A stretch of 64,000 nucleotides of DNA from Stegostoma tigrinum (taxonomy: Eukaryota): positions 38,682,340 to 38,746,339 of the forward strand of contig NC_081380.1 in assembly GCF_030684315.1 (NCBI RefSeq), read 5' to 3'. Below, in pieces: positions 2,230-59,854 of the stretch; within the stretch, counting starts at the first letter, position 1; each line of letters starts with the position of its first letter. The position numbers and the translations under genes were made by a program. The notes under the pieces were generated by a model. It was not told the origin of the DNA, made no database searches, and saw only the letters and a list, made by a program, of their open reading frames with translations.

Positions 2230-3010
2230 GGAAAATCCATCTGGTTCATTAATGTCCTTTAGGGTTCAAGCCAGCATTTTCTCGGGTTTTGTTGAGATTT
2301 TGTCTTTGAGGATGTAGTGGGCTCGGTGGGGGCGTGGCCTTAAAATAAGGAAGGTGGAGAGATGGACAGACGGATGGAGGGAGGGAGGGATTTCCAGGGG
2401 CTAAGATGGAGCTGGTGGTGGTATGAGGAGAGGAGGCAGACAGCACCCTGTCAGAGCGAGGAAGGTGCAGGGCTGGTGGATGTTATGGTGTGAGACCGGG
2501 CACAGTTATGATTGGCGTTGAATACTAAGATGGGAATTAATGGGGGTACTGGATGTTGTTTGATGTCAGCAAGGATGGGAGCGGTGGACGGGGTGGGGTG
2601 GAGCGGTTGGTGACTTGCTGCAGGGCATCACACTGGAGGAGCGAGCCCTTAAGTAAAAGAAGGGTCCAGACCCGAAACATCAGCTTTCCTGCTCCACTGA
2701 TGCTGCCTGGCCTGCTGTGTTCATCCAGCTCTATGCCTTGTTTTCTCAGACTCCAGCATCGGCAGTTCCTACCACCTCACACTGGAGGAGCAGATGTTTG
2801 TGGAAGGTAGAGGTTTGGAATTCAGCCAGGACAGGGTTAAACATTTGAATCTGGAGGTGAAGACGACAAAGTGGGAGGCTTTCAGCAGCTGCTGAGCCAA
2901 GGCAAAGGTGAAAGTGGTGGGTCTTTGAGTGGCAGACTGAGGTCTGGGTCAATACAGAATTGAAGTGTAAGACAGCATGGGTTTGTTTATTTTGTATCTT
3001 CACGCTCACT
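2230..3010 (-). mobile_element. Highly degenerate L2-type LINE ORF2 3' fragment, interrupted by a Penelope-like insertion
   Basis: Minus strand of ~2780-2870 resembles a decayed TSRLDY..LLAGLP..TLHKLQ motif of L2 ORF2; purine-rich + strand. Confidence 0.45.
2643..2776 (+). mobile_element. Short Penelope-like element, family A, single arm, 15-bp TSD
   Basis: gaagggtccagacccgaaacatcagctttcctgctcc...ctccagcatcggcagttcc; exact flanking duplication tcacactggaggagc at 2628-2642 and 2777-2791. Confidence 0.75.
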
Positions 3011-3729
3011 TTCTTGTCATAAGGGAATACTGGAGAAGTGTTGGAAGGATTAGCAGGCTAATTATTGACCTATCTGAACTGTGACATGAGCATTTCTTCC
3101 CTGGCCATAAAATCCTGGAGTGGGATTTGAACCTGGTGCTTCTCGGTCAGAGGCTTATTACCCGCTGCGCCACAAGACCTCGCTCAGTAGTGTGGTCCAT
3201 GTGGTGGAAATGAACCCTAGTGAGAGTCGTTGCCTTTAACAGAGAAAAGGAACACATTGAGAATGTTCCTCATGGTATGATTTTTGTGAACAGTTCACTT
3301 CTTACTCCTGATGCTGGTGAAGAGGTGACTCTAACCTCCAAAGTGTCTGCAGCAGATAACCTGCAGCAATTTAACACCCACTGCGGTTTTGGGAGTCACT
3401 GTCAGGACAAGCTGGTAGCAAGCTGCCTTCTTGAACTGCTGCACACCATTCAGTTGATTCACATTGCTTCAGGAAAGGAGTTCCGGGATTTTGACCCAGT
3501 GACACTGAAGGAACGGCGATATGATTCCAAGTCGGGATGGTGTGTGCTTCGAGGGAAACTTGCTTGTGGTGGTGCTCCTCTATTTGTGATGTTCAGATGC
3601 TTTGTAACTTAGCGCAAAGTAATTTGATTTCAGAAAGAAGTCTGATAAAGATTTGTAGACACACCCAAACTTGTTGGGTAAACTTTAAGAGGAAATAGGA
3701 ATATTGAAACAGAATCCACACTTCCAAAC

Positions 3730-4140
3730 TGCCGTGCCTGTGTGTGCCATAGACACGGTGAGTGTGTTATTGTGCATGCACAAGTATGACAAGTCTATAA
3801 TTGCACACACAGGCACAGCAAGTGTGTAATTGTGTGCACGTGCGGGCATGGCAAGTGTGCAATAGAGTGCACGCATGGGCACGGCAAGTTTGTAATTCTG
3901 TGCACAATCATGTAAAGTATAACTGTGCAAATTTTTGCTTGCACGAGTAGTGTTGGTATTTTCACATGCGTGTGTGTTGATAATTTTACACGTGTATGTG
4001 GGCCTGCATGTGGGTGTATACGTGTGGGTTGATATTTTCTCTCACACGTGTGTGTGTGTGTGGAATTTCTGTGTGCGTGTTGTTATTTTCACATATGTAT
4101 TACTTTCAGATTTGTGTTGGTATCTTTGCATGTGTGAGAT
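3730..4140 (+). repeat. TG-rich degenerate minisatellite / low-complexity tract
   Basis: Recurring tgtgca...ggca..gcaagtgtg units and (TG)n runs. Confidence 0.7.
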
Positions 4141-4659
4141 TGACTCTGTGGTCTCAAGGATCAGCATTGAGCGTGTATAATTGGAGAAGGGAGAGGCTGA
4201 AGGAGGATTAGAGAGTGCTGCATGGCAGCTGCTCTGTAACACAGTGAGCTCAAGCCTGCCTTCAGTAAAGAACAGGAGAGACTGATCAGAGGGTGATATT
4301 CACAGACTGCTATCTGAGTCAGAACAAGAAACATAAGAGTGGAGCATATTAATGGACTTGTTTGTCTGGTGTTCCTTGATGAGTAATTTTCCAGTACATC
4401 ATCCGCAGACGAATGGGCAAACATCGCTGGCTAAACCAGTGTTTAGCTATGGCTGGTCAATAGAATTTTATCCCAGATGATCAATCTAACAATCCCTGTC
4501 TTTAACTTCCTCCTCCCTGGACCCAGCTCCGGCTCAAGGCTAGAAACCACAAAGTCATTCTGTTCCCCACAGGGAAGCCTGGTAGTTGATCCTCTGATCA
4601 ACCTGCCAACCCAACCCCAACATTTTTAAAACTGGCATGAAGTGGTTGCCATTCACTGG

Positions 4660-5012
4660 ATGAGAGCATCACAGGCCAGGCAGCATTTATTGCCCATCCC
4701 TAATCACCCAGAGGGCAGTTAAGCGTCAGCCACATTGCTGTGGGTCTGGAGTCACATGTAGGCCAGACCAGGTAAGGATGGCAGTTTCCTTCCTTAAAGG
4801 ATGAACTGGCGTTTTTTTTGTTGCGTGCCCCCCCAATTGTTTAATGGATTCATGGTCATCATTAGATTTTTATTTCCAGAATTTTTTTTCCCCCTCCCAT
4901 TGAATTCAAATTCCACCATCTGCCGTGGCTGGATTCGAACCTGGATTCCCAGAACATATCTGAGTTTCTGAATTAATAGTCCAGTGATAATACCATAAGG
5001 CCATCGCCTTGC
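4660..5012 (-). mobile_element. tRNA-derived SINE family B, near full length
   Basis: Reverse complement of the 570-870 / 37497-38025 family: gcatttattgcccatccctaa ... ggattcgaacc ... taataccataaggcc. Confidence 0.8.
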
Positions 5013-5584
5013 CTGGGCTTGGTTAATGAGTATTGAGGATAATAGCAGGAACCTGTACAAATGACCATCAGCTTGATTGGCAGGAGTGATGGGGCACAGA
5101 CAGGGGTATTGGACTGGGGTTACATGTGTGTTTGTGTGTGTTTAAGGGAAAGTTTTTCATGGGGTTTTCATGGTTAAGCACAGGGCTTCATCTCCCAGAG
5201 CGGGTGAGGGGGTCGGTGAGTGACCTTGTGCAATATTGAGGTTGAGGGCAAGCAACACTGACCATTGATGAACCGGCGGTGGGGGGGGTATTCTCTCGTG
5301 CTTTCCTTTTAAAACACTTCACTTCACAAACACTGCAGGCGTGCGTTTGCCTGACTGGTGCAACTGTGTTTGTGCATACTGGCAGTTTGCAAACTAACCT
5401 TCAAGCTGCCTGTGCAGTAAGAGTGTATGTGCAAGAGGAACCTGGTAAGTTCTGGCAAAAGCCATTTTGAGCACAGAGTGCACCTGGTTGCACGTTTCAG
5501 ACAGAGCGAAGGTGCAACTGCTCCACTTGCAAGGTGGTGAATCTGCGGGATGCTTTACAGCAGAGGGCTGTCGAGGCTGGGTCA

Positions 5585-5755
5585 TTTAAGTATATTTAAG
5601 GCTGAGACCGATAGATTTTTATTCAACAAGAGAATCAGGGGCTATGGGGTAAGGGCAGAGAAGTGAAGTTGAGGATTATCAGATCAGCCATGACATCATT
5701 GAATGGCATAGCAGACTCAGTGAGCTGAATGGCCTGCTTCTCCTCCTACTTGTGG
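5585..5755 (+). mobile_element. CR1-type LINE 3' end fragment
   Basis: tatttaaggctgag..gatagattt...gatcagccatga...gctgaatggcctgcttctcctcct tail. Confidence 0.65.
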
Positions 5756-6194
5756 CCCATGCCTGACCTTTGTATGTCTTGTCGTGGCACTGAGTCTTGG
5801 CCAGTGTTCCCAATGAGATGGAGATCACTGCAGGGCGGAAGGGAACATTTGAAGGTAAATGCTGATAGTCTTGGTTTTGGGCCCATTAAAATGGAACTTT
5901 TTTACTGACAAAAGAAAACCGTGACTACTTGTGGGAAGGATAATCTTGCATTGTTCAAACACGTAATTAAAAATTCCTTGATCCATATTTGAATGTTTAA
6001 TCCTGTTATGCTGGTTGGAAGCTTTGCTTCCTGTGTGTTGCTAAGTAGGTAGAGATTGGCCCTGTTCAAATGGGACAATGGTAAGTATTGAAATTTGACC
6101 CATGTAAAAGGAGGCTTTTGAAACTGTTTTGACTCTACTGGGCCTAAAGCAGAGCTATTTCACTCCTCCCCAACACCTTCCAACCTTTTCACCC

Positions 6195-6575
6195 CATTCT
6201 TCATCCATTCCCTCCACCATTGAACACTTCATAGCAGCAGTGTGTACCGTTTACAAGATCCTCTGCAGAAATTCACCAAGCCCCCTTGGACACCACCTTC
6301 TGAATCCGAAACCAATTCCACCTGGAAGGACAAGGGCAGCAGATACATGGGAAAGCCACCACGTCCAAGTTCCCCTGCATCCTGACGTGGAAATATATCA
6401 CAGTTCCTTTCACTGTTGCTAACTCCTTGCTTTAAGAGATTTCTGGTTCTACCCATAGCGCATGGACTGCAGTGGTTCAGGAAGTCAGCTCACTACCACC
6501 TACTCAAGGGGGAACTAGGGACGGGCGACAAATGCTGGACGAGCCAGCGACATCCATGTACCATGAACGAATAGA
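6195..6575 (+). mobile_element. CR1/L2-group LINE 3' end (source of the SINE family B tail)
   Basis: ORF 6129-6422 contains AAVCTVYKILCRNSP..L.HHLLNPKPIPPGRTRAA, an ORF2 C-terminus; ends gggcgacaaatgctgg..gccagcgacatcc. Confidence 0.7.
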
Positions 6576-6882
6576 AAGGAAAGCACAAAGAGCTCCTGGA
6601 AATTTTCTCCGCGCAACGTGGCTCAGTGGTAGCATTCCTGCTTCTGATGCCAGCAAGATGCCCCGTTTTCCTGGGAAATGTGTGGGGGTGCAACTTGTAC
6701 CCAGTTGATGAAGCCACCCTGAAGGCGATGTCGCCACATCAACAGTGCAGCTCTCCAGTGCCGGAGTTCCAGCCTTCCTTTTGGTGTATCTGGCTGGGCC
6801 TTGAGCCCATGCCTTGCGGCTCACTGCGGTTCCTGTTGCTGCTGGAAGTCTGAGGGGTGACCCATCTTGCCATTTAGCCTTG

Positions 6883-7101
6883 GAGATGGTAGGAACTGCA
6901 GATGCTGGAGAATCTGAGATAACACAGTGTAGAGTTGGATGAACACAGCAGGCCAAGCAGCGTCAGAGGAGCAGGAAGGCTGGCGTTTCGGGCCTAGACC
7001 TTTCTTCTGAAGAAGGGTCTAGGCCCGAAACGCCAGCCTTCCTGCTCTTAAGATGCTGCTTGGCCTGCTGTGTTCATTCAGCTCTACACCTTGTTATCTT
7101 T
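6883..7101 (-). mobile_element. Palindromic Penelope-like element, family A, with hammerhead-like motif
   Basis: Inverted arms ~6917-7002 and 7013-7099; CTGAAGAAGGGTCTAGGCCCGAAACGCC at 7007-7034; degenerate TSD ttgccatttagccttg / ttgcaactagccttg. Confidence 0.8.
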
Positions 7102-7939
7102 TTGCAACTAGCCTTGCCCGTCTCTCACCGTGGCTCTGGGATGTGCGGTAAACCTTTGAGTAGCGCGGTGCGTTCAGACCAACGTGCGCACACATGAGAG
7201 AGAGAAAGAGAGACAAGGGCCGAGCTTCCGAGGGTGAAGACAGCCTGTTGACTACACGACAATTATCACACTGGTGAGGGAGGTGACAGCAGGCTCTGAC
7301 GGGAGGGAAGGTCTTTGTAAAATTGTACAAAGCCTTTGTTTAAGGCTGAAGAGTGCACCTTCATGAGCAGCTGTGCTTCTAACCGAGCTCAGCACTAACT
7401 CTGCCATCCTCTGCCCCTCATGTCGAGCCAGATTAATCTTTTATCTCTGCATCTGCTTAGCCGTTACTGATTGCTGTCATGTGCAGAGGTGTTTTGGCTA
7501 TGGTAACTGTGGCAACGTTATTTAATTAGGACGAATAATTACCCAGCGATAGCCATGATGCTGTTTGCTGCTTTTTTTTTGTTGCTTCAGGGGGTCTTCA
7601 AGACATTTTCTGAGGGCTTTTTGGACAATGTTATTTTTACTGAAAATTAAATTGGTTTCCAGTTCTGCAGACTGTGTTTTTGTTTCACTTCTGGACTTGA
7701 GAGACGAGCAGCAAATCAGCCCCGCAACACGCTCATGACAGTCGCAACCCCCTCCGTGGCCCACTCAAATTGTCAAACTTCTAGAACTTTCCAAATTACG
7801 GTGCTGGAATAGATCAGCACCAAGTTTTACAACCCTGCAGGATCTTGTCTAAATATCAGTCTTTACAATCGAGCATAAGCAGAGGTTAGTCAACTGCGTA
7901 GGGCATCACCACTAAGCCTAGTCGGATTATTGTTCAGTT

Positions 7940-8100
7940 CCAGCTGAGGTTACTATGAAGGACTCTCCTTCTCAACGTCCTCCCTTGCCTGAGCCATGGT
8001 GACCCTCTGGTTAAACCACCACCTGTCATCGCTCACTCTAGTGAGAGAGGGAGAGAGAGCATTATGGTCTAGTAAGACCATGGCTACTTTCCCTTTACTA
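7940..8100 (+). mobile_element. SINE family C 3' part (unnamed)
   Basis: ggactctccttctcaac..ccttgcct..ggtgaccctctggttaaacc...atggctact; related copies at 39295-39425 (+) and 41620-41766 (-). Confidence 0.6.
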
Positions 8101-8260
8101 TGGGAGTACTGTTTGTTGGGAGCTGGCTGCCTGCAAATTGCTGGCTGAATTTCCGACCTTGCAACTGGGCCTACCTTGCAAAAACGTTCCATCATTGATC
8201 AAGGGCATTAGGATATCCTGAGGTTCTGAAAGGTGCTATGGAAATGCACATCTTCTTTTC
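8100..8260 (+). mobile_element. SacSINE1-like DeuSINE 3' fragment
   Basis: ctgtttgttgggagctggctg..caaattgctggctg...ctgaggttctgaaaggtgctatggaaatgca tail. Confidence 0.55.
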
Positions 8261-8704
8261 ACCTCTTCCTCTGCCTCCTGCAATGATGCCTTGGCACTGA
8301 GCAGGTTTCGCATGACAGGGAATGAGTATCACAGTGGGCTGTGGTTGTAAGCAGACTGCTGTTGTCCGATAACAGCAGACTCTGGGTGATGTTACTGTTT
8401 GCAAATGCAGTGTGTTCTCCTTCTGAAACCTCATGGCGACCATCCAACACACACTAACGAGGCTGGTCCAACAGTAAATGTGTTGGTGCTGTATTTGATG
8501 GGATGATCACTTCCCCTCCCTAACCCATTGTCTCACCACTTCCTGGACTTGTTCGTTAAGTACTCTTGTGCTCCTGCTGCTCAGTATGAGGGCTTTCAAT
8601 CTGGTTCATGATATATTGCAATGTTTGACATCTGTGGTCTTCTGCTTGTCTCTCACTGGCTCATTCACAGCTGCTGCTGTAATTGTCTGGTGTTATTTTA
8701 GAAT

Positions 8705-8735
<31 letters not shown>

Positions 8736-9022: not shown

Positions 9023-9099
9023 ACAAGAGGTTCAGGAGATGACCCTATAAAGGTGACAGATGTGGGTACGCTTTGTTTGAAAGACATCACTATTTCTCC

Positions 9100-9310
9100 T
9101 TGGCCTCAATTAACACTCCCTTTGCCTTTTTCCTTGGGCACCCCTGCGGTCTCTTCCACTCACTCTTCCCCCGTCAACAGCAAAATAAAACCATTTTCTA
9201 GCCACTTTCAGCTCTTGAAATAGAGTCAGACCGAAACATTAATTCTGTTTCTGTATCTACAGATGCTGCCAGTCCTGCTGAGTTTCTCCAGCAATTTCTG
9301 TTTAGATTTG
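9100..9310 (+). mobile_element. Penelope-like pLTR fragment, family B (older)
   Basis: agtcagaccgaaacattaattctgtttctgtatctacagatgctgccagtcctgctgagtttctccagcaatttctg. Confidence 0.6.
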
Positions 9311-9384
9311 AAGCAGTGTAAATGTTTTGAGTTTGGTTTGACATCTTCAGAATGGAAGAATCTTCTGCAGAGTCCTACTGGACA

Positions 9385-9695
9385 CACAATGTTAACTCTG
9401 TTTCTCTTTCCACAGATGCTGCCAGACCCACTGAGATTCTGGATAACACAGTGTGGAGCTGGAGGAACACAGCAGGCCAGGCAGCATCAGAGGAGCAGGA
9501 AAGCTGACATTTCGGGTCGGGACCCTTCTTCAAAAACATCAGCTTTCCTGCTCCTCTGATGCTGCCTGACCTGCTGTGCTCCTCCAGCTTCACAATGTGT
9601 TATCTCTGACTCCAGCATCGGCAGCTCCTATGGTCTCCACTGAGATTCTGTTTCTGTTTCCAATGCCCAGCACCTGCAGTGTTTTGCTTTTATTT
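9385..9695 (+). mobile_element. Family-B Penelope-like fragment interrupted by a palindromic family-A element (9442-9636) with 14-bp TSD
   Basis: Exact duplication ccactgagattctg at 9428-9441 and 9637-9650; inner arms gataacacagtgtggagctggagg... / ...cctccagcttcacaatgtgttatc. Confidence 0.8.
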
Positions 9696-13147: not shown

Positions 13148-13239
13148 CCCCTTAATCCAACCTGTCAACACCAGAGCGGCCTGCCTGAGGTGAGGGAGTG
13201 CTGTCATGAGATATGGGCACTATAGGTTGGCGGTTATGG

Positions 13240-15964: not shown

Positions 15965-16155
15965 AGAGCAGAGAGCTCTGGAGAGACTTAGCAGGTCTGT
16001 GAAGAGAGTAACTCAGTTAATGTTTCATGTCCAATGATCTCCTTCTGTTCTGTTAATGTTAACTCTGTTTCTCTCTCTACAGCCCTGCTGAGTTTCTCCA
16101 GCACTCTCTGTTTATGTTCATTTTAGCCATCCAGCATCCACAGTTTTTTGTTTTA
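15965..16155. mobile_element. Decayed inverted pair of family-B Penelope-like fragments
   Basis: ctggagagacttagcagg...agttaatgtttc facing aatgttaactctgtttctctctctacagccctgctgagtttctccagc. Confidence 0.55.
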
Positions 16156-16349
16156 GATAAAGGGTCCAGCCCACTGGGTTCCAGCCACAGAATCGTGACT
16201 TGTTATGTACTCGAGGAAGGGTCAACTATTTTGTTAGGCCTGATCATTTAATTTTGCTTTTACAGAGCTGCATTAATTGAATTCCTAACCACACCCCTCT
16301 GCAAAGCCCCTTTCCCCACCTCCCCCACCCCTGGTGGACTGTTCACCTT

Positions 16350-16455
16350 CATTCTGAAGAAGGGCCTCTGTGCTTGAAACATTAACTCTGCTTTCTGTCT
16401 CCACAGATGCTGCCTGACCTGCTGAGTTTCTCCAGCAGTTTCGGTTTTTCTTTCA
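16350..16455 (+). mobile_element. Penelope-like family-B fragment with hammerhead-like motif
   Basis: attCTGAAGAagggcctctgtgcttGAAAcattaactctgctttctgtctccacagatgctgcc. Confidence 0.7.
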
Positions 16456-20030: not shown

Positions 20031-21360
20031 GTGAGTCAATGATCCCCTTGCCCTGTGCTTTGAGATTTTCTGGCATTTCTGCAACTCTGCTCAGAAGAAT
20101 CTCTCTTAATTGGTGCCCGGAGAGTTAAGTCGCTGTTTTTGAAACTCTGATGCTCACAACAGATGTGTTTTTGATCTCTTTAATTCTCCTGTGGGCTCTT
20201 AAGTACGTGTCTGGGAAAGACAATGTTTCTAAGCCAGAAACAAAGCTACTTAGGAGAGCAGGTCAGTAAAGTGGGATGAATACACAACTCCTTAATTGTT
20301 GTATTTGCTCTATTCGAAAATTGAGTCTGGCCCCTAGTTTCATATTTAATGGGGGCCGTACAGAATTGTGCTTCTGCTGGAGGTTACAATCAGTTTCACT
20401 CACTGAGACACAAACTCAAGGCTACAACATTAATTGAAGGGATCTGTGTGTTGCTGGCTAGGTTAGCATTTGTTGCCCAAGCCTACTTGGCCAGAGGGCA
20501 GTTATGAGTCAGCCACATTGCTGTGGGTCTGGACATGCATGGAGGCCAGTGCAGGCAAGGTCCTTCCTCCTGCTCTCGTACCCCTGCAGTTCAGATCTCA
20601 CAGCACAGCCCACTTAATATGCTGGGGTTTAAAGGGCTGTGTCTGCCCCCCAGAATCAGGGACATTCCCCTAATCAGGGAAATGGTGCCCCCTGTTTAAA
20701 GGATGCTTCTAATACAGTTTCATCACTGGGCCCACTTAGCCAGCTTGGCTTGGTTGTAGTGCTCCTGCCTAGTTAGCTGTAAGGTGGTGGGCTGTAATCA
20801 CGTCCCGAGACTCCAGAATACGTGCCAAGCTGATACTTTGGTGGAGTCGTTGAAAACAGTCAGTATGGAGACATTATACTGAGGCTGGGAGAGAGGCTGG
20901 ATCCCAGAGCATTGATGGGAATATTTTCTGGACACCCTTTCAAACACAATCACTAAAACAATTGAACCTCCCTTTTACCGCATTTTGGTGCATGACATCT
21001 TGTCACACATGAACATTTAATAAATTAATCCATTGGATGTGAAGCGATTTGGGGAGAGCTAGAAGGTGCTATTTGAACATAAGTGTTATTCTTCAGGTAC
21101 TCGTACCATCCTGCATCACTGCTTCATTGTGAAAATCAAACTGAATCATTATTCCACTATGGTCTGGCCTCATTTGCCATTGTTTAGGGGATCACATTCT
21201 CCCATTTGGTCAATCTTCTGGGAGAACTGCCAACCCAGTGATTAGATGTGGGAACAGAAGCCAGCTGTTCAGCCCATCAGGTCTACTCTGCCATTCAGTG
21301 AGATGTATGGTGATGTTGATCCATGGCAGAGTTGAATCTGAGCTATGACAAAAGTTTTTG

Positions 21361-21578
21361 AGATAACGCGGTGTGGAGCTGGATGAACACAGCAGGCCAA
21401 GCAGCATCAGAGGAGCAGGAAGGCTGACGTTTCGGGCCGAGAGCCTTTTTCAAAAGAAGAGTCTAGGCCTGAAACGTCAGCCTTCCTGCTCCCCTAATGC
21501 TGCTTGGCCTGCTGTGTTCATCCACGTCTACACCTTGGTATCTCAGATTTTCCAGCATCTGCAGTTCCTACTATCTTT
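21361..21578 (+). mobile_element. Palindromic Penelope-like element, family A
   Basis: Arms agataacgcggtgtggagctggatgaacacagcaggccaagcagc... / ...gctgcttggcctgctgtgttcatcc...; degenerate TSD tgacaaaagtttttg / tgacagtagttttg. Confidence 0.8.
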
Positions 21579-23154: not shown

Positions 23155-23795
23155 GGAGACAATGGTCTAGTAGTATTATTGCTGGAATGTTAATCCAGAG
23201 ACCCAGATAATGTTCTGGGTTTGAATCCCGCCACAACAGACGATGAAATTTGCATTCAATAAATATCTGGAATTAAGAATCCAGTGATGACCATGAATCT
23301 GTTACCGATTGTTGGAAAAATCCATCTGGTTAGATTAGATTCCGTACAGTGTGGAAACAGGCCCTTCGGCCCAGCAAGTCCACACTGCCCCTTGAAGCAT
23401 CCCACCCAGAGCCATCCCCCTATAACCCACACACCCCTGAACACTGGGCAATTTATCATGGCCAATCCATCTAGCCTTCACATGTTTGGACTGTGGGAGG
23501 AAACTGGAGCACCCGGCGGAAACCCACGCAGACGCAGGGAGAATGTGCAAACTCTGCATGTGGAATCAAACCCAGGTCCCTGGCGCTGTGAGGCTGCAGT
23601 GCTAACCACTGAGCCACCGTGCCGCCCCATTACTAATGTCCTTTAGGAAAGGAAACTGGTCCTTACCTGGTCTGGCCTACATGTGACTACAGACCCAGTG
23701 CAACGTGGTTGGCTCTAAACTGCCCTCTGGGCAATTAGGGATGAACAATAAATGCTGCCTGGCCAGTGACATCCTCATCTCGTGAATGAGTAAAG
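23155..23795 (+). mobile_element. tRNA-derived SINE family B interrupted by an HE1-like SINE
   Basis: Head ggtctagtagtatt...gggtttgaatccc; body split at ccatctggtt|...|actaatgtcctttagg. Confidence 0.8.
23331..23626 (-). mobile_element. Full-length HE1-like V-SINE
   Basis: Reverse strand starts ggcggcacggtggctcagtggttagcactgc; V-domain present; ends gccgaagggcctgtttccacactgta..aatctaatct. Confidence 0.88.
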
Positions 23796-25084: not shown

Positions 25085-25195
25085 TCTGTTTCAGCAGCAA
25101 GAGCAGAAATTATTGGGAAAGCTCAGCAGGTCTGGCAGCATCTGCGCAGAGAAAGCAGTTAACATTTCGGTTTGAGTGACCCTTCCTCAGAATGG
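25085..25195 (-). mobile_element. Penelope-like family-B fragment with hammerhead-like motif
   Basis: Reverse strand: attCTGAGGAagggtcactcaaaccGAAAtgttaac...agatgctgccagacctgctgagc. Confidence 0.7.
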
Positions 25196-36553: not shown

Positions 36554-36655
36554 GAGAGATTTCTGAAGGGCGATCCCGACCTGAAACGTCAGCTTTCCTG
36601 CTCCTCTAATGCTGCCTGGCCTGCTGTGTTCCTCCAGCTCCACATTGTGTTATCT
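36554..36655 (+). mobile_element. Penelope-like family A single arm with 13-bp TSD
   Basis: Exact ctgttttcttctc at 36541-36553 and 36656-36668 flanking ctgaagggcgatcccgacctgaaacgtcagctttcc...tgttatct. Confidence 0.8.
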
Positions 36656-37496: not shown

Positions 37497-38025
37497 GGAG
37501 GTATTGGCCTAGTGGCATTATCGTTGGACTGTTAGTCCAGAGTTCTGGGTAACAGTCTGGAGACCTGGGTTTGAATCCTGCCACGGCAGTTGGTGGAACA
37601 CAAAAGCTGACGTTTCAGGCCTAGACCCTTCATCAGAAAAGCATCTAGGCCCGCACCATCAGCTTTTGTGCTCCTAAGATGCTGCTTGGCCTGCTGTGTT
37701 CATCCAGCTCCACACCTTGTTATCCTGGATTCTCCAGCATCTGCAGTTCCCATTATCTCTGACGGCAGTTGGTGGAATTTGAATTCAATAAAAATATCTG
37801 GAATTAAGAATCTAATATTAGATTCTTAATGATTCTTTGAGGGGGGAAATCCATCTGGTTCACTAATGTCCTTTAGGGAAGGAAACTGCCATCCTTACCT
37901 GGTCTGGCTTACATGTGACTCCAGACCCACAGCAATGTGGTTGACTCTGAACTGCCCTCTGGGCAATTAGGGATGGGTAGTAAACGCTGGCCTAGCCAAT
38001 GACGCCCTTGTCCCGTGAATGAATG
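37497..38025 (+). mobile_element. Full-length SINE family B interrupted by a Penelope-like palindrome
   Basis: Head tggcctagtggcatt...gggtttgaatcc; tail cgtgaatgaatga. Confidence 0.82.
37599..37761 (+). mobile_element. Palindromic Penelope-like family A element with 16-bp TSD
   Basis: Exact acggcagttggtggaa at 37583-37598 and 37762-37777; minus strand 37609-37636 reads CTGATGAAGGGTCTAGGCCTGAAACGTC. Confidence 0.85.
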
Positions 38026-41766: not shown

Positions 41767-42150
41767 TGCAATGCCATCAGCCAGATGAACTGCAGCCAGT
41801 TTGACTGGGATGGCTGTGTGGCAGGACAGTGGCTGATCAGTGAAAGCACTGCCTTTTCGCTGGGAGCAGCATCTATCCTTCTTAAAATCATTGGTTTGGG
41901 TCCCATTTTGAGCAGCTTGGGTTAATCCATTCGACTGTAGTCTTGCACACAGAGCAAAAACTAGACCCTATCAATGTAAGATAGTCACTTAGAATTTGAA
42001 GAGGAGACTCAAGAAAATTCCTTTCCCAAAGAATGGTGAGAATGTGGAACTTGCTATCACTGGATCCATGGATAATTGAGAAGGGAGCGTACGTAGTGTT
42101 TGCTGATACTGTTACATGGGGAAGGATAGAGGGTGCTCATGTGTTGGTAT

Positions 42151-42188
42151 GGTTCTGAAGAAAGGTCACCGGACCTGAAACATTAACT
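42151..42188 (+). ncRNA. Minimal type-I hammerhead ribozyme-like motif (Penelope type)
   Basis: GGTT-CTGAAGA-A-AGGTC(ACCG)GACCT-GAAA-CATT-AACT: 4-bp stem I, both core boxes, 5-bp stem II, minimal stem III; activity not shown. Confidence 0.55.
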
Positions 42189-42291
42189 CTGATTCTTTTT
42201 CTTCAGAAGCTGCCAGACCTGCTGAGCTTTTCCAGCAACTTCTGTTTTTGTTCCTGATTCACAGCATCTGCATTTCTTTTGGTTTTTATTT
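42151..42291 (+). mobile_element. Penelope-like family-B element inserted into a CR1 tail
   Basis: Hammerhead-like 5' part then gctgccagacctgctgagcttttccagcaacttctg; probable TSD tgttggtatgg (42142) / tgttggtacgg (42292). Confidence 0.75.
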
Positions 42292-44149: not shown

Positions 44150-44685
44150 TGACTGGTGAGGCCTCTTCTGGAGTGTCGTGTGTAGTTCTGGTCGCTCTGT
44201 TATAGGAAGGATGTTATTATATTAGAAAGGGTTCAGAAAAGATTTACCAGGATGTTGCCAGGACTGGGGAGTTTGAGTTATAAGGATAGGCTGGGACTGT
44301 TTTCACTGGAGCATCGGAAGTTGAAGAGTGACCTGATAGAGGTTTATAAAATAATGAGGGTCACTGATGAGGTGAACAGCAAGAGTCTTGTCCCTCGGGT
44401 GGGGAATTCAAACATAGAGTGGCATATTTTAAAGTGGGAGGAGAAAGATTTAAAAATGGGGCACCTCATTCCATACAGAGAGTGGTTTGTGTGTGGAATG
44501 AGCAGCTGGAGGAAGTGGGAGAGTTGGGTACAGTTACACCATTTAAAAGACATCAAACAGGTACATGAGTAGAAAAGGTTCACAGGGACATGGACAAATG
44601 CAGGCATGTGGGACTAGTCTAGGAAACTTGACATGGACTAGTTGGACCAAAGGGTCTGTTTCTGTGCTGTATGCCTCTGTGAACT
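44150..44685 (+). mobile_element. CR1/HER1-type LINE 3' end
   Basis: LERVQKRFTRMLPGLGSLSYKDRLGLFSLEHRKLKSDLIEVYKIM; 3' UTR gttggaccaaagggtctgtttctgtgctgta. Confidence 0.85.
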
Positions 44686-44691
44686 GAAAGG

Positions 44692-44792
44692 TTTTGAAGA
44701 ACAGTTGTACTGGACTGAAAACATTAACTGTGTTTCTCTCTCCACAAATGCTGCCTGACTGCTGAGTTTCTCCAGCAATCTCTGTGTATTTT
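44692..44792 (+). mobile_element. Penelope-like family-B fragment
   Basis: ttgaagaacagttgtactggactgaaaacattaactgtgtttctctctccacaaatgctgcc..ctgctgagtttctccagc. Confidence 0.65.
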
Positions 44793-45124: not shown

Positions 45125-45580
45125 GAGCGCAGGATCTATTGCCCTGAGACCTGGGCTCTGCTGCCTTCAGTACCCGGGATCTACTGTCCCCAGATTTTGT
45201 GATTTCCTTCCGTTGTCACCCAGCATCTGTTGTCCTCAAAGCCTGGGATCTGTTTCCTTCAGAGTCCGGGATCTACTGCTCTTGGATCCTGAGATCTTCC
45301 ACCCCTGGAGCCCAGGACCTCCAGAACCTGGAATCTGCTGGTTGACCCTCTGCGATCTGCTGTTCTTGGAACCTAGGATTTCCTGCCTGAGCCTATGGGA
45401 TTTGCTATCCTCAGAACCTGGAATCTGCTGGCTGAACCTCTGGGATCTGCTACTCCTGGAGCCCAGGTTTTCCTGTCTGAACCTCTGGGATCTGCTACTT
45501 TCGGAACCCAGGATTTCCGGCCTGAGCCTATGAGATCTGCTACTTTCGGAACCCAGGGATCTGCTGCCTGGGATCTGCAT
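45125..45580 (+). repeat. Minisatellite with 45-bp higher-order period built from ~22-bp ggatctgct subunits
   Basis: ctgaacctctgggatctgctactcctggagcccaggttttcctgt followed by ctgaacctctgggatctgctactttcggaacccaggatttccggc (starts 45432 and 45477). Confidence 0.85.
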
Positions 45581-52768: not shown

Positions 52769-54044
52769 ATTGTGTTTCACGTCTATCTCCTGCCTGTGTA
52801 TTGTTAGCTTCTGCACAGTGGTGTACTACGTTTGTCTCTTATCACATTGTGGACCTCCTGAGATCCATGCGTGGCTGTGGTGTCTGGAACCAGAAGTCAG
52901 TGTGTCCGGGTGCCAATTGTCATGCACAGATCACCCAAGTGACTGCATAACTGTGCAGGTTTGAGGAAACAGTGATGCGCTTTAATATGCAGAGACTCCC
53001 TTAAATGGCCCCCTCATGCCTTCCAATTGATTAAAAGTAGAAATAATAGAAATTCACCATGGGTCTGGTAGCATCTGTGTGGAGAGACTGAGTCAATGTT
53101 TCAGGGAACAGAAAACACCTCCATTTCCAGGCTCCCATTGCTTGTTGTGAGCTTCAGGACATGCTAAAATTTGACATCTGAATTGTGACAGAAGGTAAGC
53201 GTGACATTATATGCCAGATTTTGAAAAAAATTAATTGGCTGCATTTTCCTCCAAAATGAATGTCCGTACAGTCACAAACAGAAACAGCATGTTCTAAACC
53301 AGTGCTGACATTTCAGATGATTGAAATGCAGATTAAAGATTGTTTTGCATTAAAACAATATCATTTTATTTTTAGAATATGTTTGATAGCCCGCAGAAGC
53401 AGAATTGGCTGAGGTAATTTTGCCATCCATTTTACAAAGGGAAACCTCACTTTAAGCACTGAAGGAGCAGGCTATAATCAGCCTGCTGTATTATTAAATA
53501 GAGTCATTTTCCAACTTTGTACTCACAGAGCAAGAGCTTTGTACATTTGGGAGCGCTTGTTGGCAAAATGACATAGAAGTTATTTTTCCAGAGCGAGTTG
53601 ATGCCTGATACATAACAGTACCGAACCGAGAGCTTGGGTTCAGCCATTACCTGAAACTTCCTGATGCAGAGAGTATGGAGAGCAACGAATGGGCATGAGA
53701 TTCAACACGATTGCTTACTCTCATTCTCATAAATGTATCCCGAAAGAGTCAACTGGTTTAAAGGGAAGGGGTAGGAGAGGGCTCGGGCCAGGAGATGAAA
53801 GTCTGGTTCATTCCCACACCACCTTTTCGGTATTGTGTGACAGTGTAAAGGCATCCCTCCCCCATTACCGTGTCATTGCATAGCAGACGTCCCCAAGCCC
53901 TTGAAGAGTATCGCTAGTGACTCCCTCCCCTTTAGTGGCCGCTCCAGTATCCGTATACTCTGTCTTGTGCCACCAGCCCCAGTATTGATTGGGCCATATC
54001 GTGAGCCCCGCCCCCAAAACCAGAGAAGAAACACTTTTTTAAAA

Positions 54045-54335
54045 ACTCATTCACAGGATGTGGACGTTGTTGGCCAGTACTTAATGCTTATCCCTAATAG
54101 CAGTTGAGAGTCAACCACATTGCTGTGGGTCTGGAGTCACTTGTGGCCGAGGGATGTTAGTGATACCGTAGGGATCTTTCCCCAACAATCAGCAATGGTT
54201 TAATGGTCATCATTACACTCTTCATTCCAGATTTTTATTGAATTCAAATTCCACCATCTTCCATTGGTGGGATTTGAACCTGATTACTGGACTAATAGTC
54301 ATGTGATAATACCATCAGGCAGTTGCCTCCCCTAT
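54045..54335 (-). mobile_element. SINE family B
   Basis: gagtcaaccacattgctgtgggtctggagtcac...ttccagatttttattgaattcaaattccaccat...ggatttgaacc. Confidence 0.72.
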
Positions 54336-56639
54336 CTGCGATGCTGCTAATGGTTTTGATAATATCTGACAGACTCAAGCACAGACAATGGCGGATTTTA
54401 TATCACACATCTGGTGCGCAATGGTACCTTTTAGATTCATGCTCACCATGATATCTGTTGTTTTAAAATTGTCAGTCTCCATCTTACTGGGGTCACTTAC
54501 TGCATTGCTCAGTGCTAGCCCATGCACAACAGTGTCTGTGATTGTAATGTGTTTAAATACCAGGAGGTATGGTATCTTTGAGTACCACGTTACCTGTATC
54601 TAGTCTAATATTAAGGGAACTAATATATGCACTGCCTCATCAGGTACCGGTAACCTCCTGGAGGTAATAAAGCTCTTTGCTGCACCTGTGGCATATCTAG
54701 GGGTGTGTGAAAACTTGAGTCCACTATCCACATGCCCCACCAATGGCTGGAGGTTTGGACCCAGTATTGTATTGCGTTGTTCAGTCACCTCGGACCCAAC
54801 AGCCCTGGTTTCGTAACTCCAGAGGGATTGTCTAAGATTAAGAGGAGTTTTTTTTTCTCTCAACTTCCCATGGCCTCCTGGTGACATAGAGCCTTGACAC
54901 TCGCTTAAACGACACTTGGAGTAAAGTGCACAGTTCTGTATTCTCCATTCACACAGGGGGCGTGGAGGTGTGGACGATGTGGTGCTAACAAAAAATTTTA
55001 TGAAGATAATACCAGAATGTAGAGAGGTTTAAATTTCAAGAATGATTGTTTGGGGGCACTTCTTCCTGGGGGCGGGGGTTAAAAAAAAGACGGAAGATGA
55101 TTTGAAGTCTTCAAATCTCTGAAGGGATTTGATCAGGTAGAGAAGAAACAGGGAATGCGGACAATTTGTGGGTGAGTTGACATAGCTGTTGCTGGTAGTA
55201 ACTGCTTGAGCCTTTGGCCCTGTTTGTGGGGTGTCACATGTGTTTTTTATTTCACACCCTCGCACTCCATGGTAGCTCGCCTGTAACCTGCTCTCATCCA
55301 GATCTGACCCACCTTCCCGCTACTCTCTGCTTTGCCCTCTGCAAAGGATCTCTGTATCTCTTACTAGTCAACTAGGCTGAAACACTGACGGAAAATTCTG
55401 ATCTAGTCATCACTTATTTTTTAGTTTTTTTTGCAATTTCAAGTACCTTCTGGTTTGCTCGTGATAGGGCTTGTAGATATAGCGTAGTCACTAATAAATC
55501 AAACTGGGAATTCAGGGAGAACTGCAGTCAGGATGGAAGTGGGTATTGCAGGGAATAGTTGGTTAATAGCGTCAATGTATTTAAGGGGAAGCTGAATAAA
55601 CACTGAAAGGAGAGAGGAATAGAAAGCAGATTGGGAAAAAACCCCTATCACTGCCCTGTTGGGTGAAATGGACAGTTTTTACAGGTATATTCTGTGTAAT
55701 TTTAAGTGGTTTGTGTTCGCAGTTGGGTCTAATGCTGAACATGTGGAGGTAGATTGATCCGTGTGAGGCCGGCGACAGTAAACAGGACATTTACAAACCA
55801 GGACTGACACTACAGATGATCTAAATGTAGATGAGCAATCGTTTTGCATTTAAATAATAAAAGTTTATTTTTAGACAGGCCAGCAGCTCGGGAGGAAAAA
55901 ATTGGCAGAAATCACTTTAATGTATCTGGCAAAAACACTCGCACTCAACACACTGGCAAGATTATAATCATGGCTTTTCTTTTTAAATGAAAATGTTCTT
56001 TATTGCTATTGAATATGAAGTTACAAATTAAATAGAATAGTGGGCCCGGAAGACCCAAAGCTGTTTCTGTCAAATTATGTGTTTGTTGAAATGTTCATCC
56101 GCTATTATTCACAGCTTTAGAGCAGATTCCTTGGTGCTAAATTTAGAATCGCTCCCGCTTTGTCAGTTTAAAGGAACACTGTTATTTGCAGCGTAGGTGA
56201 GCACTCCAAATAGAACTGTACATTTCAATATGTGACGAATTTTGAAACTCGTGTGAGAAGTTTTTTTGTGGAAAAATATACTTTTCTCTCCACGAGGAAA
56301 GCGTCAGATCCTTTCAGGGGGAGTGGACTGGGGTCACAGTGCCCTATGCCTGAGATAACTGCAACCCCTTAATACCCCTGCTATCTGTCCAAATTCATGT
56401 ACCTCTATTGCCTATTCCACATACCTTATCTCTGCACCAAATGGTGTGGACTGCTAAAGGAAAAGCCTCCAAATGGGGGAAGGTTTCCCAGAATAACTAG
56501 GTCCTGAGGTCAGTTATGATGCAGTGTTTTGTGGATAGTGGAGCCTGACACAAAGCAGATAAAAGCACAGGTCTTCATTAATTTAGCGCCTTCAGGAGGT
56601 CCCAAAGACCTTTACAACCCATGTGGTACTCATTGAAAT

Positions 56640-56775
56640 GAAAACAAAAAAGTGCTGGAGATCACTGGATTAGGCAGCACCCATAGAGGGAAAGCAAGCC
56701 AATGTTTCGAGTCTAGATGATTCTTTCATCAGAGCTGCGTTTTCAGTTCAAATTCCAGCATCTCCAGTAACTTGC
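56640..56775 (-). mobile_element. Penelope-like fragment with hammerhead-like motif
   Basis: Reverse of 56697-56736: AGCT-CTGATGA-aagaatcatctagactc-GAAA-CATT-GGCT (4-bp stem I). Confidence 0.62.
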
Positions 56776-56819
56776 TAGGACTCTTTGAAACACAGTTTCT
56801 TAGGCTCCTTTTCTCGAAT

Positions 56820-57660
56820 TCACTCACAGGACATGGGCATCAGCGGCCAGGCCATTTGAAAGGGCAGTTAAGAGTCAACCAGATTGCCGTGGATTGGAGT
56901 CACATGTAGACCAGACCAGGTAAAAGCATGAGTGGAACCAGTGGGTTCCTTGCTGCAGAGAGCCTTGTGAGCATAGTCCTTGTGCATATTTAAGGCTGAA
57001 CTAGATAGGCTCTCCTCAGGCCGGTTTCCCATACATTGGTTGGAGTCCCATCACGGTGAAATTTGGATTCAGTAAAATAACGATTGGAATTGAAAAGCTA
57101 GCCCAGTGGTGAGCATGTAAACTGATTGCCATAAAAATAAAACACCATCTGGCTCATTTTAGAGAAGGAAGTCTGCTATCCTCACCTGGTCTGGCCTACA
57201 TGTGACTCCAGATCTACAGAAATGCTCTGAGGAAGGGTCACCAGCCCCAAAACGCTAACTCTGTTTTTTCCTTCGCAGATGCTGCTAGGCCCTGCTGAGC
57301 TTTTCCAGCAACTTTGTTTTTGTCTCTACAGAAATGTGATTGACTTTTAATTGCCTTCTGGGCAATTAGGGACGGGCAATAAATGCTGGCCCAGCCACAG
57401 GCATTGAATGAATGAATGAAGAAGTAGGGGAAATCAAGGATTACAGGGAAAGGGCAGGAAAGTGGACATGAAGAATATCAGATCAGTCATGAACCTACTG
57501 AGTTGGGGGGAGCAGGCTAAAATAGCCTACTGCTGTACCTATGCCTTCTGGAGAGTAGTTACTTACATGGTCACCATTCCAGATTTTCACTGAATTCGAA
57601 TTGCCCTATGTAGCACGATGGGTTTGAACCCGTGTCCCCAGAACATTAACCTGGTGGTGT
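56820..57660. mobile_element. Mosaic of SINE family B (both strands), CR1 tail and a family-B Penelope-like insertion (57225-57322)
   Basis: tctacagaaatg occurs both before and after ctctgaggaagggtcacc...ccagcaactttgtttttg (probable TSD); host tail gggcaataaatgctggcc..(tgaa)n. Confidence 0.65.
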
Positions 57661-58029
57661 CCAGTGAAATTGTCACTGTGCCACCCTACTTTGTTCAGAA
57701 GGGAGCCAAGGATTTGAGGTCAGACAGGAAAGTGAATTTCGGGCCATAATTAGATCAGCAAAGATCTCACGGAATGGCACAGCAGACTCGAAGGGCTGAA
57801 TGGCCTACGCCTGCCCCCATCTCTTTTCCATTGTGGGAGAACACGGCTACCAGCCTGCATCAAGAGCTCTGTGATAATGTCTGTTTCTTCTGTGCATGAT
57901 AGAAGAGCCCAAGTACAAAGAACAGGAATAGGCCATTCAGCTCCTCAAGCCTATCACCATTTAACGTGATCATGGCTGATCTCATCTCAGCCTCAACCCC
58001 ACTTTCCTGCCTGCTCTCTATGATGCTTC

Positions 58030-58300
58030 AACCCAGAAACTGATTGGGAGATAAAGACTGGCCAAGCCACAAGGGCAAACTTGCTTTTTGTTCATCAAAT
58101 GATTCGGGATCCTTCACATTTCAACTGAGATGCCAGTCAAGGCCCCTGTTTAACATCTCATCTCAAAGATGGTACCTCTGACAATGCAGCACTCCCTTGA
58201 TACTGTCTTTGGAAGTGTCAGCCAAGATTTAGTGCTCAGATCCCTGGAGCAGGATGTGGGCTCCAGCCTCTGAGTCTGAGGAAAGAGTGTGGTCCACTGA
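58030..58300 (-). mobile_element. SacSINE1-like DeuSINE (5' half)
   Basis: ggcccctgtttaacatctcatc..aaagatggtacctctgacaatgcagcactccc..gtgtcagcc..gtgctca (reverse Deu-domain). Confidence 0.65.
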
Positions 58301-58390
58301 GAGAAAGTCAGTACTGGCTCGCAGTATCATACTGAAGGCATGGGCTGTGCACACTCTGATATTTATAAGACACTTGTTAGACCTCAGCTG

Positions 58391-58516
58391 GGATGTGGAG
58401 GTGTTGGACTGGGGTGGACAAAGTCAGAAGTCACACCACACCAGGTTATAGCTCAACAGGTTTATTTGGAATCAGAAGCTTTGGAGTGCAGCCCCTTCGT
58501 CATCTGATCAAGGGGT
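58391..58516 (-). mobile_element. Penelope-like pLTR fragment, third family (C), decayed hammerhead-like motif
   Basis: Reverse strand: aTGACGAaggggctgcactccAAAGCTTctgattccaaataaacctgttg..ctataacctggtgtggtgtgacttctgactttgtccacccc. Confidence 0.55.
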
Positions 58517-58665
58517 TCAATGGAAGCATTGAATGCTTATTTGGAGAGCAATGGTGTGGAGGGAAATGGGAAACAGACAGCATATTGGCACTAGGGGATA
58601 GAACCAGTGCAGGCATGATGGACTGAATGGTCTATTTGTACACCATAACAATTCTATGATTCTGT

Positions 58666-58880
58666 GATAACAAGGTGTAGAGCTGGATGAACTCGGCAGG
58701 CCAAGCAGCATCTTAGGAGCAGGAAAGCTGATGTTTCGGGACTAGACCCTTTATCAGCTGATGAAGAGTCTAGGCCCAAAACGTCAGCTTTCCTGCTCCT
58801 AAGATGCAGCTTGGCCTGCTGTGTTCATCCAGCTCCACACCTTGTTATCTCGGATTCTCCAGCATCTGCAGTTCCTAATA
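58666..58880 (+). mobile_element. Palindromic Penelope-like family A element with ~15-bp TSD
   Basis: Arms 58666-58757 and 58758-58848 meet without spacer (tcag|ctga); tctatgattctgtga at 58653-58667 and 58881-58895. Confidence 0.87.
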
Positions 58881-59854
58881 TCTATGATTCTGTGACTTAA
58901 TCACGAGGAAATCAAAAGTGAGGAGATGCACATGAACCCTGCTTGTGTAGGAGATAACTCCAATGTTTTATTTTAAAGGCTCTCAAAATAAGCAGGTGAA
59001 TGAGCCTCTGCAGAAGCACTGAACAGAGTTCTCAAAATCTACAATATATTTGATCCCAATGAAAATACATCATGACCTGACCCCTTAAGCCTGTTGACTG
59101 TTGGATATTATAGTTAGTGGAGTGAGGTGTGCACTTCTCAAATCGTCATTGCTCTGGGTTACAGTAGAAACCCAGAGGTAAACAAAAGAAAGGAACGTGC
59201 AATCTTATTGACAGAGAAGGGGAATTATTCCTCTGCTCTTTTCGAGTGGCCAAACCCGCTGTTTATTCAGCACTAGTAAATCCAGCTGTTGGCCTGTTAA
59301 AGATAACACGCAGTCACTGTCAGACACTCCAAGCTTAAAGAGGTATTGTACCTTTAAGACTCATTGATCCGTTTTGTTTAATTGCAAGACTCAGCTACCC
59401 TGCAAAGGGAAACCCTTTCCTGTGTGATGGGGCCCTCACTACAAACCTTCAGGTTAACCTCATTGGAAGTAGAACCCTTCCAACTAATCAGCTGATTGCA
59501 GCATTTTTTTTAAAGAATATGTTTTTGGAGCAGTCTGCATATTGGGGTCAAGGCCACACTATTGACTGAACTCCATTGTTCCTCGCTCGACGATCGATGG
59601 ACTCCTCACAGTGTCAACACCAAAATGCACCAAATAAGCGGACCACCATCAGCTAGGGAAGTCTCCACCCCACCCCACCCCCACCCCCACCAACAGGGAG
59701 GGTCAATAGTGGAGCTTGTTGTGTTGTGGATCTGGAACTCAGCCAGAAGCCCTCACGGTTGATTCCTATCGCAAGAAGGGTGTAAAAACAGTATGGGGAC
59801 AAAGTTGAGAAGGAGACACCTTTCTGGGGCTTGAACGTGTGCTGTTGAGTTACT

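Follow-up and report, generated by a model that had tools for sequence, protein, structure and literature searches.

What sets the ends of a Penelope-like element (PLE) copy that is only 100-220 bases long is the question raised by a family of short repeats, here termed family A, dispersed through the 64,000-nt stretch of shark DNA analyzed in this study (the window). The question bears upon the transposition cycle of PLEs and the role of the hammerhead motif within it. The original prediction, made from the sequence, described nine family-A copies as a recently active, retrozyme-like unit whose limits are defined by a ribozyme and which is mobilized in trans by a PLE protein.

Copies and Target Site Duplications

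A survey of the window combining nhmmer with position checks located the nine copies where they had been predicted; together they comprise 14 arms, and nhmmer returned no further family-A copy in the window (Table 1). The five exact target site duplications (TSDs) of 13-16 bp that had been reported, and the two degenerate ones, were recovered by repeat search, and the seven copies that they bound contain inserts of 102-222 bp. When the same spans and search boxes were applied to 399 random positions, an exact repeat of at least 13 bp arose once. Copy A37599 is particularly informative, as it lies in an older SINE whose paralogs have the site once: removal in silico of the insert and one TSD copy yields a sequence that aligns across the junction to seven other copies of this SINE in the window, and the duplication is therefore a true TSD. 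Taken together, the exact TSDs and the emptied SINE site support mobilization by insertion; the 100-220-base repeats are genuine insertion events, and their ends are built as is already known for Penelope-type mobile elements. Metagenome, viral and GTDB contigs were also scanned for exact patterns and gave no match.

Table 1. Positions and structure of family-A and family-B copies and of example motifs in the window.
Feature	Coordinates	Strand or arrangement	TSD	Structure
A2643	2628..2791	+	exact, 15 bp (2628-2642/2777-2791)	134-bp solo tailed arm 2643-2776; ~14 unassigned nt precede core; subfamily A2
A6883	6871..7116	head-to-head	degenerate, 12 bp, 2 mismatches (6871/7105)	tailed arm - 6883-7007; short-ended arm + 7008-~7100; arm junction in core
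A9442	9428..9650	head-to-head	exact, 14 bp (9428-9441/9637-9650)	short-ended arm - 9442-9534; tailed arm + ~9531-9636, beginning at GAAA box; whole copy sits in a family-B copy
A18870	18861..18990	-	doubtful, 12/17 match only	solo tailed arm beginning within helix II; most decayed copy, ~20% off majority
A21361	21346..21591	head-to-head	degenerate, 13 bp, 2 mismatches (21346/21579)	short-ended arm - 21360-21452; tailed arm + 21453-21578
A36554	36541..36668	+	exact, 13 bp (36541-36553/36656-36668)	102-bp solo short-ended arm without tail; subfamily A2
A37599	37583..37777	inverted	exact, 16 bp (37583-37598/37762-37777)	45-bp stub on -, the sole arm with intact core; tailed arm on +; in older SINE
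A52638	52635..52768	+	none found	solo tailed arm from 3 nt before core
A58666	58653..58895	head-to-head	exact, 15 bp (58653-58667/58881-58895); overlaps of 2 nt at both ends	short-ended arm - 58666-58757; tailed arm + 58758-58882; both arms begin exactly at C3 of core
Minimal type-I hammerhead motif, example	58758..58785	+		core, 4-bp helix II, GAAA box, 1-bp helix III; predicted cut after 58785; two point changes in this copy
Tail, example	58852..58882	+		between short and long 3' ends; 33 nt in A1, 31 nt in A2
Family-B copy	57213..57336	+	exact, 12 bp	100 bp, begins 2 nt before its core; in a SINE
Family-B copy	42150..42290	+		intact core and tail
Further family-B copies	~16354, 44695	+		
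Further family-B copies	~25190, 56732	-		
Further family-B copies	9215-9292; 9379-9441 with 9651-9690; 16050-16145	+

Arm Pairs and the Two 3' Ends

Inverted pairs joined head to head make up five of the nine copies, bearing out the inverted segments originally reported, and opposite-strand joints from place 2657 also occur in genome contigs. What the original prediction described as a single 3' end is in fact two ends, lying 33 nt apart (31 in subfamily A2), that bound an optional tail and recur genome-wide as loose ends in all four sequencing runs considered below. Each of the four complete pairs joins one short-ended arm to one tailed arm, one pair combines arms from different subfamilies, and the junctions of A6883 and A58666 have short palindromes at their center. 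The two 3' ends are those of the known PLE tail.

As characterized in two reports, an EN+ PLE insertion consists of a pLTR, an inverted 5'-truncated copy, a 30-40 bp tail and a TSD of variable length (Arkhipova et al., 2013, PMC3846280; Craig et al., 2021, PMC8557442). Family A resembles these canonical elements in its head-to-head arms, one-arm tail, junction palindromes, variable TSDs and, as predicted from the motif, a putative hammerhead in the pLTR, and the tail, inverted arms and TSDs support the PLE origin that had been proposed. It differs in that the insertion is the pLTR module alone, with no ORF, in that its 5' ends cluster at the ribozyme core, and in TSD length, which is 12-16 bp here versus 8-10 bp in the A. 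vaga examples consulted (PMC3846280). Since most of the anatomy (tail, inversion and TSD) has already been described, what is gained is a testable refinement and no new class: these short Penelope copies belong to a known class and display one little-described regularity.

Biochemical study of Poseidon_Ac (PAc) of Anolis carolinensis has revealed two internal RT start sites that bound the tail, with both strands extended (Frangieh et al., 2024, PMC11167929). Like PAc, family A has two tail-bounding ends downstream of the hammerhead and would not need ribozyme cleavage, and its mixed short and tailed pairs fit the two internal start sites and two-strand priming of that element. Because such sites are demonstrated for PAc, the two 3' ends described here can be read as RT start sites.

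5' Ends and the Hammerhead Motif

In 11 of the 14 arms the 5' end falls at -3 to +3 relative to C3 of the CTGANGA core, while in the other three it falls at +11, +12 and +21, in agreement with the original placement of this end at or near the CTGANGA...GAAAC motif. Both these arms and the pile-up seen in genome contigs show that the 5' ends are non-random, in contrast to the random distribution named at the outset as the mark of simple truncation. Measured from the predicted cleavage site, all 14 arms begin 7-31 nt upstream, none begins or ends at the site itself, and the 3' ends fall 66 and 99 nt downstream; the unit is therefore not ribozyme-cut. Because the copies begin just before the ribozyme motif rather than at the predicted cut site, they are likely to represent the front end of the element's RNA and not ribozyme-cut RNA circles.

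No hammerhead in Rfam matched the window up to E=1, so the ribozyme assignment rests on the motif; the matches returned were hairpin-driven ones to miRNA, snoRNA and lncRNA families, under gathering scores. Helix II (4 bp) is paired in 76% of cells, the best of seven registers, with a covariation score that was reached by 47 of 500 shuffles and is thus not significant. Most cores are decayed. Dispersed minimal hammerheads have been reported from metazoan genomes as thousands of single motifs and opposite-strand pairs and were read as truncated PLEs (Cervera and de la Pena, 2014, PMC4209133). The motif of family A has in common with them an unpaired base after A9, a G-C first pair of helix II and a palindromic 1-bp helix III, and differs in having a helix I of only ~2 bp; the text of that report, as consulted, gives neither TSDs nor end positions of single motifs.

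Genome contigs, which cannot show RNA starts, were compared in four runs. Loose ends before place 2657 are found in 2,251 (X1), 2,244 (X4), 631 (X6) and 206 (X16) contigs, counts that favor unique flanks over collapsed shared sequence; as the reference copy itself begins at 2657, every copy reaching that far piles up there. Partly matching contigs in X1 number 12,215, with 5,246 in the six places listed. The median loose length is 140-255, and the 30-letter majority of these ends has no more than ~9 nt in common where it adjoins the junction (agreement 0.42-0.45), indicating that most enter unlike flanks at once. The shared junction bases match YYANWYY, the initiator pattern, a weak correspondence expected by chance in about 1 of 128 cases. 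Loose ends from X16, a run that we guess to be RNA, have ~16 nt of C-rich upstream sequence in common, and longer forms therefore exist. A search across runs listed no RNA run that contains the repeat, a result that says nothing about expression. Splicing of the template, with the ribozyme at the end of the intron, was also considered and rejected, as it would leave a common first exon upstream, yet the flanks differ at once.

Coding Capacity

Consistent with the original description of the copies as lacking coding sequence, no RT or GIY-YIG remnant was detected in the window, and the copies are pLTR-only. Specifically, the best E in tblastn of the window was 0.11 when three shark-type PLE proteins served as queries, and none of 97 full-length PLE ORFs matched the window at E<1e-3. 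The proposed absence of a Pol III head likewise agrees with the searches for tRNA-, 5S- and 7SL-derived heads, in which ARAGORN found 0 genes and Rfam gave no such match up to E=1, both being weak tests for decayed heads. An ORF starting in the ribozyme, as in PAc, where it starts in helix II, was rejected as unproven: the frame is open in several arms, but subfamily variants break it.

The whale shark possesses a Neptune-type RT+GIY-YIG protein, P0029, and this candidate shark protein, unlike PAc, has a Neptune-type cysteine linker. In two gene models of the whale shark, P0026 (51% over 63 aa, E 9e-17) and P0015 (63% over 84 aa), pieces of this protein are fused to the translation of the repeat. 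The connection to an ORF is indirect: such pieces occur in only these 2 of 40 protein matches to the repeat, both of them spliced predicted gene models, and many of the remaining matches contain unrelated LINE-like pieces. Profile searches with the translation of one open frame yielded 28 and 37 matches, short chimeric gene models of which none exceeds 281 aa, and a Pfam search of eight short gene models found no PLE domain.

Age of the Copies

The suggestion that the family was recently active is not upheld. Divergence between paired arms amounts to 9-14% in the four complete pairs, from which it follows that activity is not recent; arms with 50 or more shared columns are 74-91% identical overall, and no empty-site joint indicating polymorphism at copy A2643 appears among the joints listed in two samples. 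A contig from organism B spans 2755-2839, taking in 22 nt of tail, the TSD and flank and falling under the 31-letter threshold, and offers only a hint that this copy is common to two species.

Origin of the Short Copies

The account that we favor, with confidence somewhat better than even, is that the copies are TSD-flanked pLTR insertions for which a PLE RT/GIY-YIG protein primes inside the leader and copies only the first ~95 or ~130 nt, as far as the 5' end of the RNA; this end would sit a few bases ahead of the ribozyme core. Firstly, the endonuclease would stagger its cut by ~12-16 bp, as the observed TSDs suggest. Secondly, the RT would start at one or the other of two internal sites, which are separated by 33 nt, and so produce a short or a tailed end. 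Thirdly, the cDNA would pass the uncut hammerhead and halt at the template 5' end, the observed clustering presumably reflecting a transcription start. Lastly, priming of one strand would produce a solo copy, and priming of both strands, one per start site, would allow the cDNAs to join at their near-palindromic 3' ends in a head-to-head pair with the tail on one arm only, a structure seen in all four complete pairs. The ribozyme would not cut out the unit, and longer elements would arise from rarer read-through or tandem transcripts.

Several published observations are pertinent to this account. PAc RT uses uncleaved RNA, with no RNA reads ending at the cut site (PMC11167929), and the Penelope transcript starts within the pLTR from an internal promoter (PMC2377424). 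A start right at the core nevertheless departs from the published geometry in D. virilis, where 46 nt plus a 75-nt intron separate the start site from the hammerhead downstream of it, and from that of PAc, whose pLTR reaches well upstream; the main text consulted on PAc includes no table of 5' ends for short genomic copies (PMC11167929). If the 5' clustering does mark the RNA start, thousands of short copies would map in vivo the point where transcription begins, the two sites at which the RT starts and the stagger of the cut, and the mobilized RNA would be shown not to be ribozyme-cut. The dispersed minimal hammerheads of vertebrate genomes would then be leader copies and not random truncations.

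We consider it unlikely that family A is instead a separate non-autonomous family, in which some solo units possess an internal promoter and the RT-binding signal, their transcription begins immediately before the core, and a PLE protein acting in trans copies them; they would resemble SINEs but have neither a Pol III head nor ribozyme cutting. Such a family would agree with the fact that shared variants diagnose three or more subfamilies, although these may equally belong to an autonomous element, and with the lack of any reading frame kept across them, one subfamily having a stop codon and another a 2-nt tail deletion. It would also suit the abundance of the repeat (9 copies in 64 kb and 56,590 matching contigs in X1), the absence of long copies among the nine, the sufficiency of pLTRs for trans mobilization in A. 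vaga (PMC3846280), and the precedent of non-autonomous PLEs such as MRC1 (PMC8557442). Against it stand the longer forms evident in X16 and the requirement of PAc for RNA to ORF position +172, which is perhaps missing in solo copies (PMC11167929). Equally unlikely, in our estimation, is the broader claim that shark genomes harbor very large, self-propagating non-autonomous Penelope families of ~100-130 nt, in which an internal promoter right at the hammerhead core would fix the 5' end and two internal RT start sites the 3' ends. Were it true, such families would be the SINE-equivalent for PLEs, without Pol III head, poly(A) tail, tandem arrays or ribozyme cleavage, and head-to-head pairs would record two-RNA, two-strand priming by an RT dimer.

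Slightly less probable again is that long PLE templates undergo ordinary truncation at the 5' end, with a strong point of arrest or switching at the core that involves no transcription start and is caused by RNA structure, a bound protein or annealing of near-palindromic cDNA ends. Heavy 5' truncation, together with inverted copies and junction palindromes, is indeed known for PLE insertions (PMC8557442; PMC3846280), short palindromes lie at the junction centers of A6883 and A58666, and three arms of family A end within helix II or at the GAAA box. A hairpin block, however, would halt the RT 3' of helix II, yet 11 of 14 arms pass through, and the solo copies at 36554, 52638 and, in family B, 57227, which have unique flanks, stop at the same place without a palindrome.

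The mobile unit as originally proposed, a small RNA of retrozyme type, linear or circular and cut by its ribozyme, is very improbable, for although every family-A copy has the minimal hammerhead motif at one end, a few X1 contigs (2-6 per joint among the joints listed) contain head-to-tail joints of 75-94 nt, and a preprint reports pLTR-related non-LTR retrozymes including one chondrichthyan genome (10.64898/2026.07.22.740005), the cut site bounds none of the 14 arms, none of the nine copies is tandem or circularly permuted, the 5' strand of helix I is missing or barely kept, the shared upstream bases giving two pairs and then a mismatch, and the core as matched by regex is intact in one arm. 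Family A does share with non-LTR retrozymes its non-coding nature, predicted type-I hammerhead motif and kinship to the PLE pLTR (PMC7761336; 10.64898/2026.07.22.740005); those elements form head-to-tail tandems that give rise to circles running from cut site to cut site, whereas the copies described here are solo or inverted, with ends off the cut site.

Family B

The window also contains a second family, family B, which is related to family A. Six of its copies likewise start at or near their core.

Anatomy and insertion of the family-A copies

All nine family-A copies lie where the original prediction had placed them, and a profile built from these copies matches 14 family-A arms (single module copies) and approximately 10 weaker relatives, designated family B, within the window. 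In alignment A1 the arms resolve into one module, in which a minimal hammerhead motif is followed, after approximately 66 nt, by a first 3' end; a second 3' end lies a further 33 nt beyond (31 nt in one subfamily), and an identical hexamer closes both. Four of the nine are solo copies, three of them with the tail and one short, and five are head-to-head pairs. In each of the four complete pairs the tail is found on one arm and is absent from the other, and in the fifth pair one arm is a 45-bp stub. The arms start no more than 3 nt from C3 of the CTGANGA core in 11 of 14 cases, and at +11, +12 and +21 in the other three; the predicted ribozyme cut site lies 7-31 nt downstream of the start in all 14.

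Arms of four head-to-head pairs are largely concordant in subfamily variants. The arms of pair 6883-7104 have in common two uncommon variants near the junction and are unlike at two subfamily-diagnostic dinucleotides farther out (alignment A1 columns 60-61 and 100-101), which hints at two different templates.

Exact TSDs were confirmed for five copies (15, 14, 13, 16 and 15 bp) and degenerate ones for two more (12-13 bp, two mismatches each); the TSD of another copy is doubtful, and a search at the last copy found none. At random positions, an exact repeat of at least 13 bp occurred at 1 of 399. In silico excision of insert 37599 together with one TSD copy yielded alignments across the junction with seven other copies of the host SINE, and the same excision of the family-B copy at 57225 yielded 10. 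The older, abundant SINE family hosting the A37599 and B57227 insertions (597-850, 4650-4995, 23215-23790, 37515-38025, 54067-54280 and 62175-62469) is presumably Deu-SINE-like. A search of the window for RT or endonuclease remnants gave none.

Genome-wide contig ends

Contigs from 4 of 23 listed runs were aligned to copy 2643, with 56,590, 57,684, 18,268 and 4,691 aligning; these counts are not copy numbers, and contigs favour unique flanks. Among the loose-end rows listed (a further 714 rows and 23 joints exist), the largest pile in every run falls before 2657 (2,251, 2,244, 631 and 206 contigs), which is the edge of the reference copy itself, in alignments clipped by mismatches. The majority sequence of this pile has approximately 9 nt in common next to the junction in three runs and approximately 16 nt, C-rich, in the fourth (X16), with an agreement of only 0.42-0.45; therefore most such copies enter unlike flanks within approximately 10 nt, and a minority reach further upstream. 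Both 3' ends are also marked by loose contig ends, and opposite-strand joints, among those listed, begin at 2657. Head-to-tail joints from 2731-2750 back to 2657-2659 (75-94 nt) are present, among the joints listed, in a few organism-A contigs; these are rare tandem units, which may be either partial tandems or retrozyme-like seeds.

Origin of the 5' ends

The Penelope origin and non-random ends originally proposed hold: the elements are real and behave like EN+ Penelope-like insertions, whose end signatures they carry. Tail, inversion, junction palindromes, solo pLTRs and TSDs have already been described for PLEs (accessible text of PMC3846280; PMC8557442), and dispersed single and opposite-strand minimal hammerheads have been interpreted as truncated PLEs (PMC4209133, likewise). 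A literature search outside Repbase and Dfam found no description of this shark family, which may well be catalogued, and no report of PLE 5' ends fixed at the core in a search beyond which lay most subscription papers and some supplements. The one little-described feature is the position of the 5' end, fixed immediately ahead of the ribozyme core; it makes the PLE template start directly testable.

In the anole element PAc, reverse transcription begins at two internal sites that delimit the tail, each DNA strand is cut and extended, insertion proceeds normally in hammerhead mutants, and zero RNA reads end at the cut site (PMC11167929). Such start sites and two-strand extension explain why family A has two 3' ends and why its pairs carry one tail each; the 5' ends need a different cause, the simplest being that the RNA template itself would begin just before the core. 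Consistent with this, the Penelope start site and an internal promoter lie within the pLTR, although the start is not at the exact place seen here (PMC2377424). Family-A copies are accordingly viewed, with somewhat better than even confidence, as leader copies of PLE transcripts.

A self-propagating non-autonomous family would have the same ends as leader copies, and is considered unlikely. Slightly more doubtful is a truncation hotspot at the core, as a hairpin block would halt RT before helix II, and 11 of 14 arms read past it. Palindrome annealing accounts for the pair junctions but leaves the solo copies without explanation. The ribozyme-defined, retrozyme-like unit initially envisaged is very improbable, since cutting would put copy starts after the cut site, where no arm starts, and since non-LTR retrozymes are defined by tandems (PMC7761336; preprint 10.64898/2026.07.22.740005), whereas the family-A copies in the window are not tandems; by the tests run, they are not retrozymes.

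The family-A ribozyme itself is putative, its support lying at the level of the motif. Helix II is paired in 76% of 72 cells in the best of seven registers, with a covariation score reached by 47 of 500 shuffles and so not above them; helix I is approximately 2 bp, the core is intact in 1 of 14 arms, and an Rfam search of the window gave no hammerhead match.

Age and candidate partner protein

Recent activity, also suggested at the outset, is not supported: within the four complete pairs, the two arms are identical at 77/86, 66/74, 74/86 and 78/86 columns, and the 78 arm pairs sharing more than 50 columns are 74-91% identical (mean 83%), with at least three subfamilies distinguishable. Because shark substitution rates are slow, this divergence indicates that the copies are probably old. 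TSD copies mismatch at 4 of 98 positions, but they had been picked for matching. No empty-site joint for copy 2643 was found among the joints listed for two organism-A samples, and one contig hints that this copy is shared with organism B.

Searches with the translated repeat returned 40 distinct short proteins, and the five looked up that contain it are gene models of whale shark or zebra shark. Among the 40, two have PLE protein pieces in the same chain, namely an endonuclease C-terminus (P0026, 51% over 63 aa) and an RT core (P0015, 63% over 84 aa), and a third shows a weak match. The reference, Rhincodon typus protein P0029, has Pfam GIY-YIG above and RVT_1 below cut-off, and a cysteine linker, described as a Neptune/Nematis feature (accessible text of PMC8557442). 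The linkage is only suggestive, because many others of the 40 join the repeat to unrelated sequence. P0018 (XP_048413197.2), a zebra-shark ZNHIT3 isoform model, has the translated repeat near its N-terminus, possibly through exonisation or mis-prediction.

Family B and other features

Family B is a second family headed by a hammerhead and is related to A; its helix II loop is longer and its helix I better. In six copies the start lies at or near the core, and one copy has an exact 12-bp TSD. A C-rich stretch (16290-16354) immediately upstream of one copy's core may preserve more of the region that lies upstream in the element.

Family-B copies in the window
Feature	Position	Strand	Remark
Family-B copy	9215-9292		
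Family-B copy	9379-9690		copy A9442 nested inside
Family-B copy	16050-16145		
Family-B copy	16354-16450		
Family-B copy	25115-25190	-	
Family-B copy	42155-42290		
Family-B copy	44695-44790		
Family-B copy	56652-56732	-	
Family-B copy	57225-57324		

The window also holds a tandem array with a 45-bp period (45322-45546) and an open frame (44186-44572) that by eye resembles the 3' part of a CR1/L2-type LINE RT, with many similar 3' fragments, also judged by eye, across the window.
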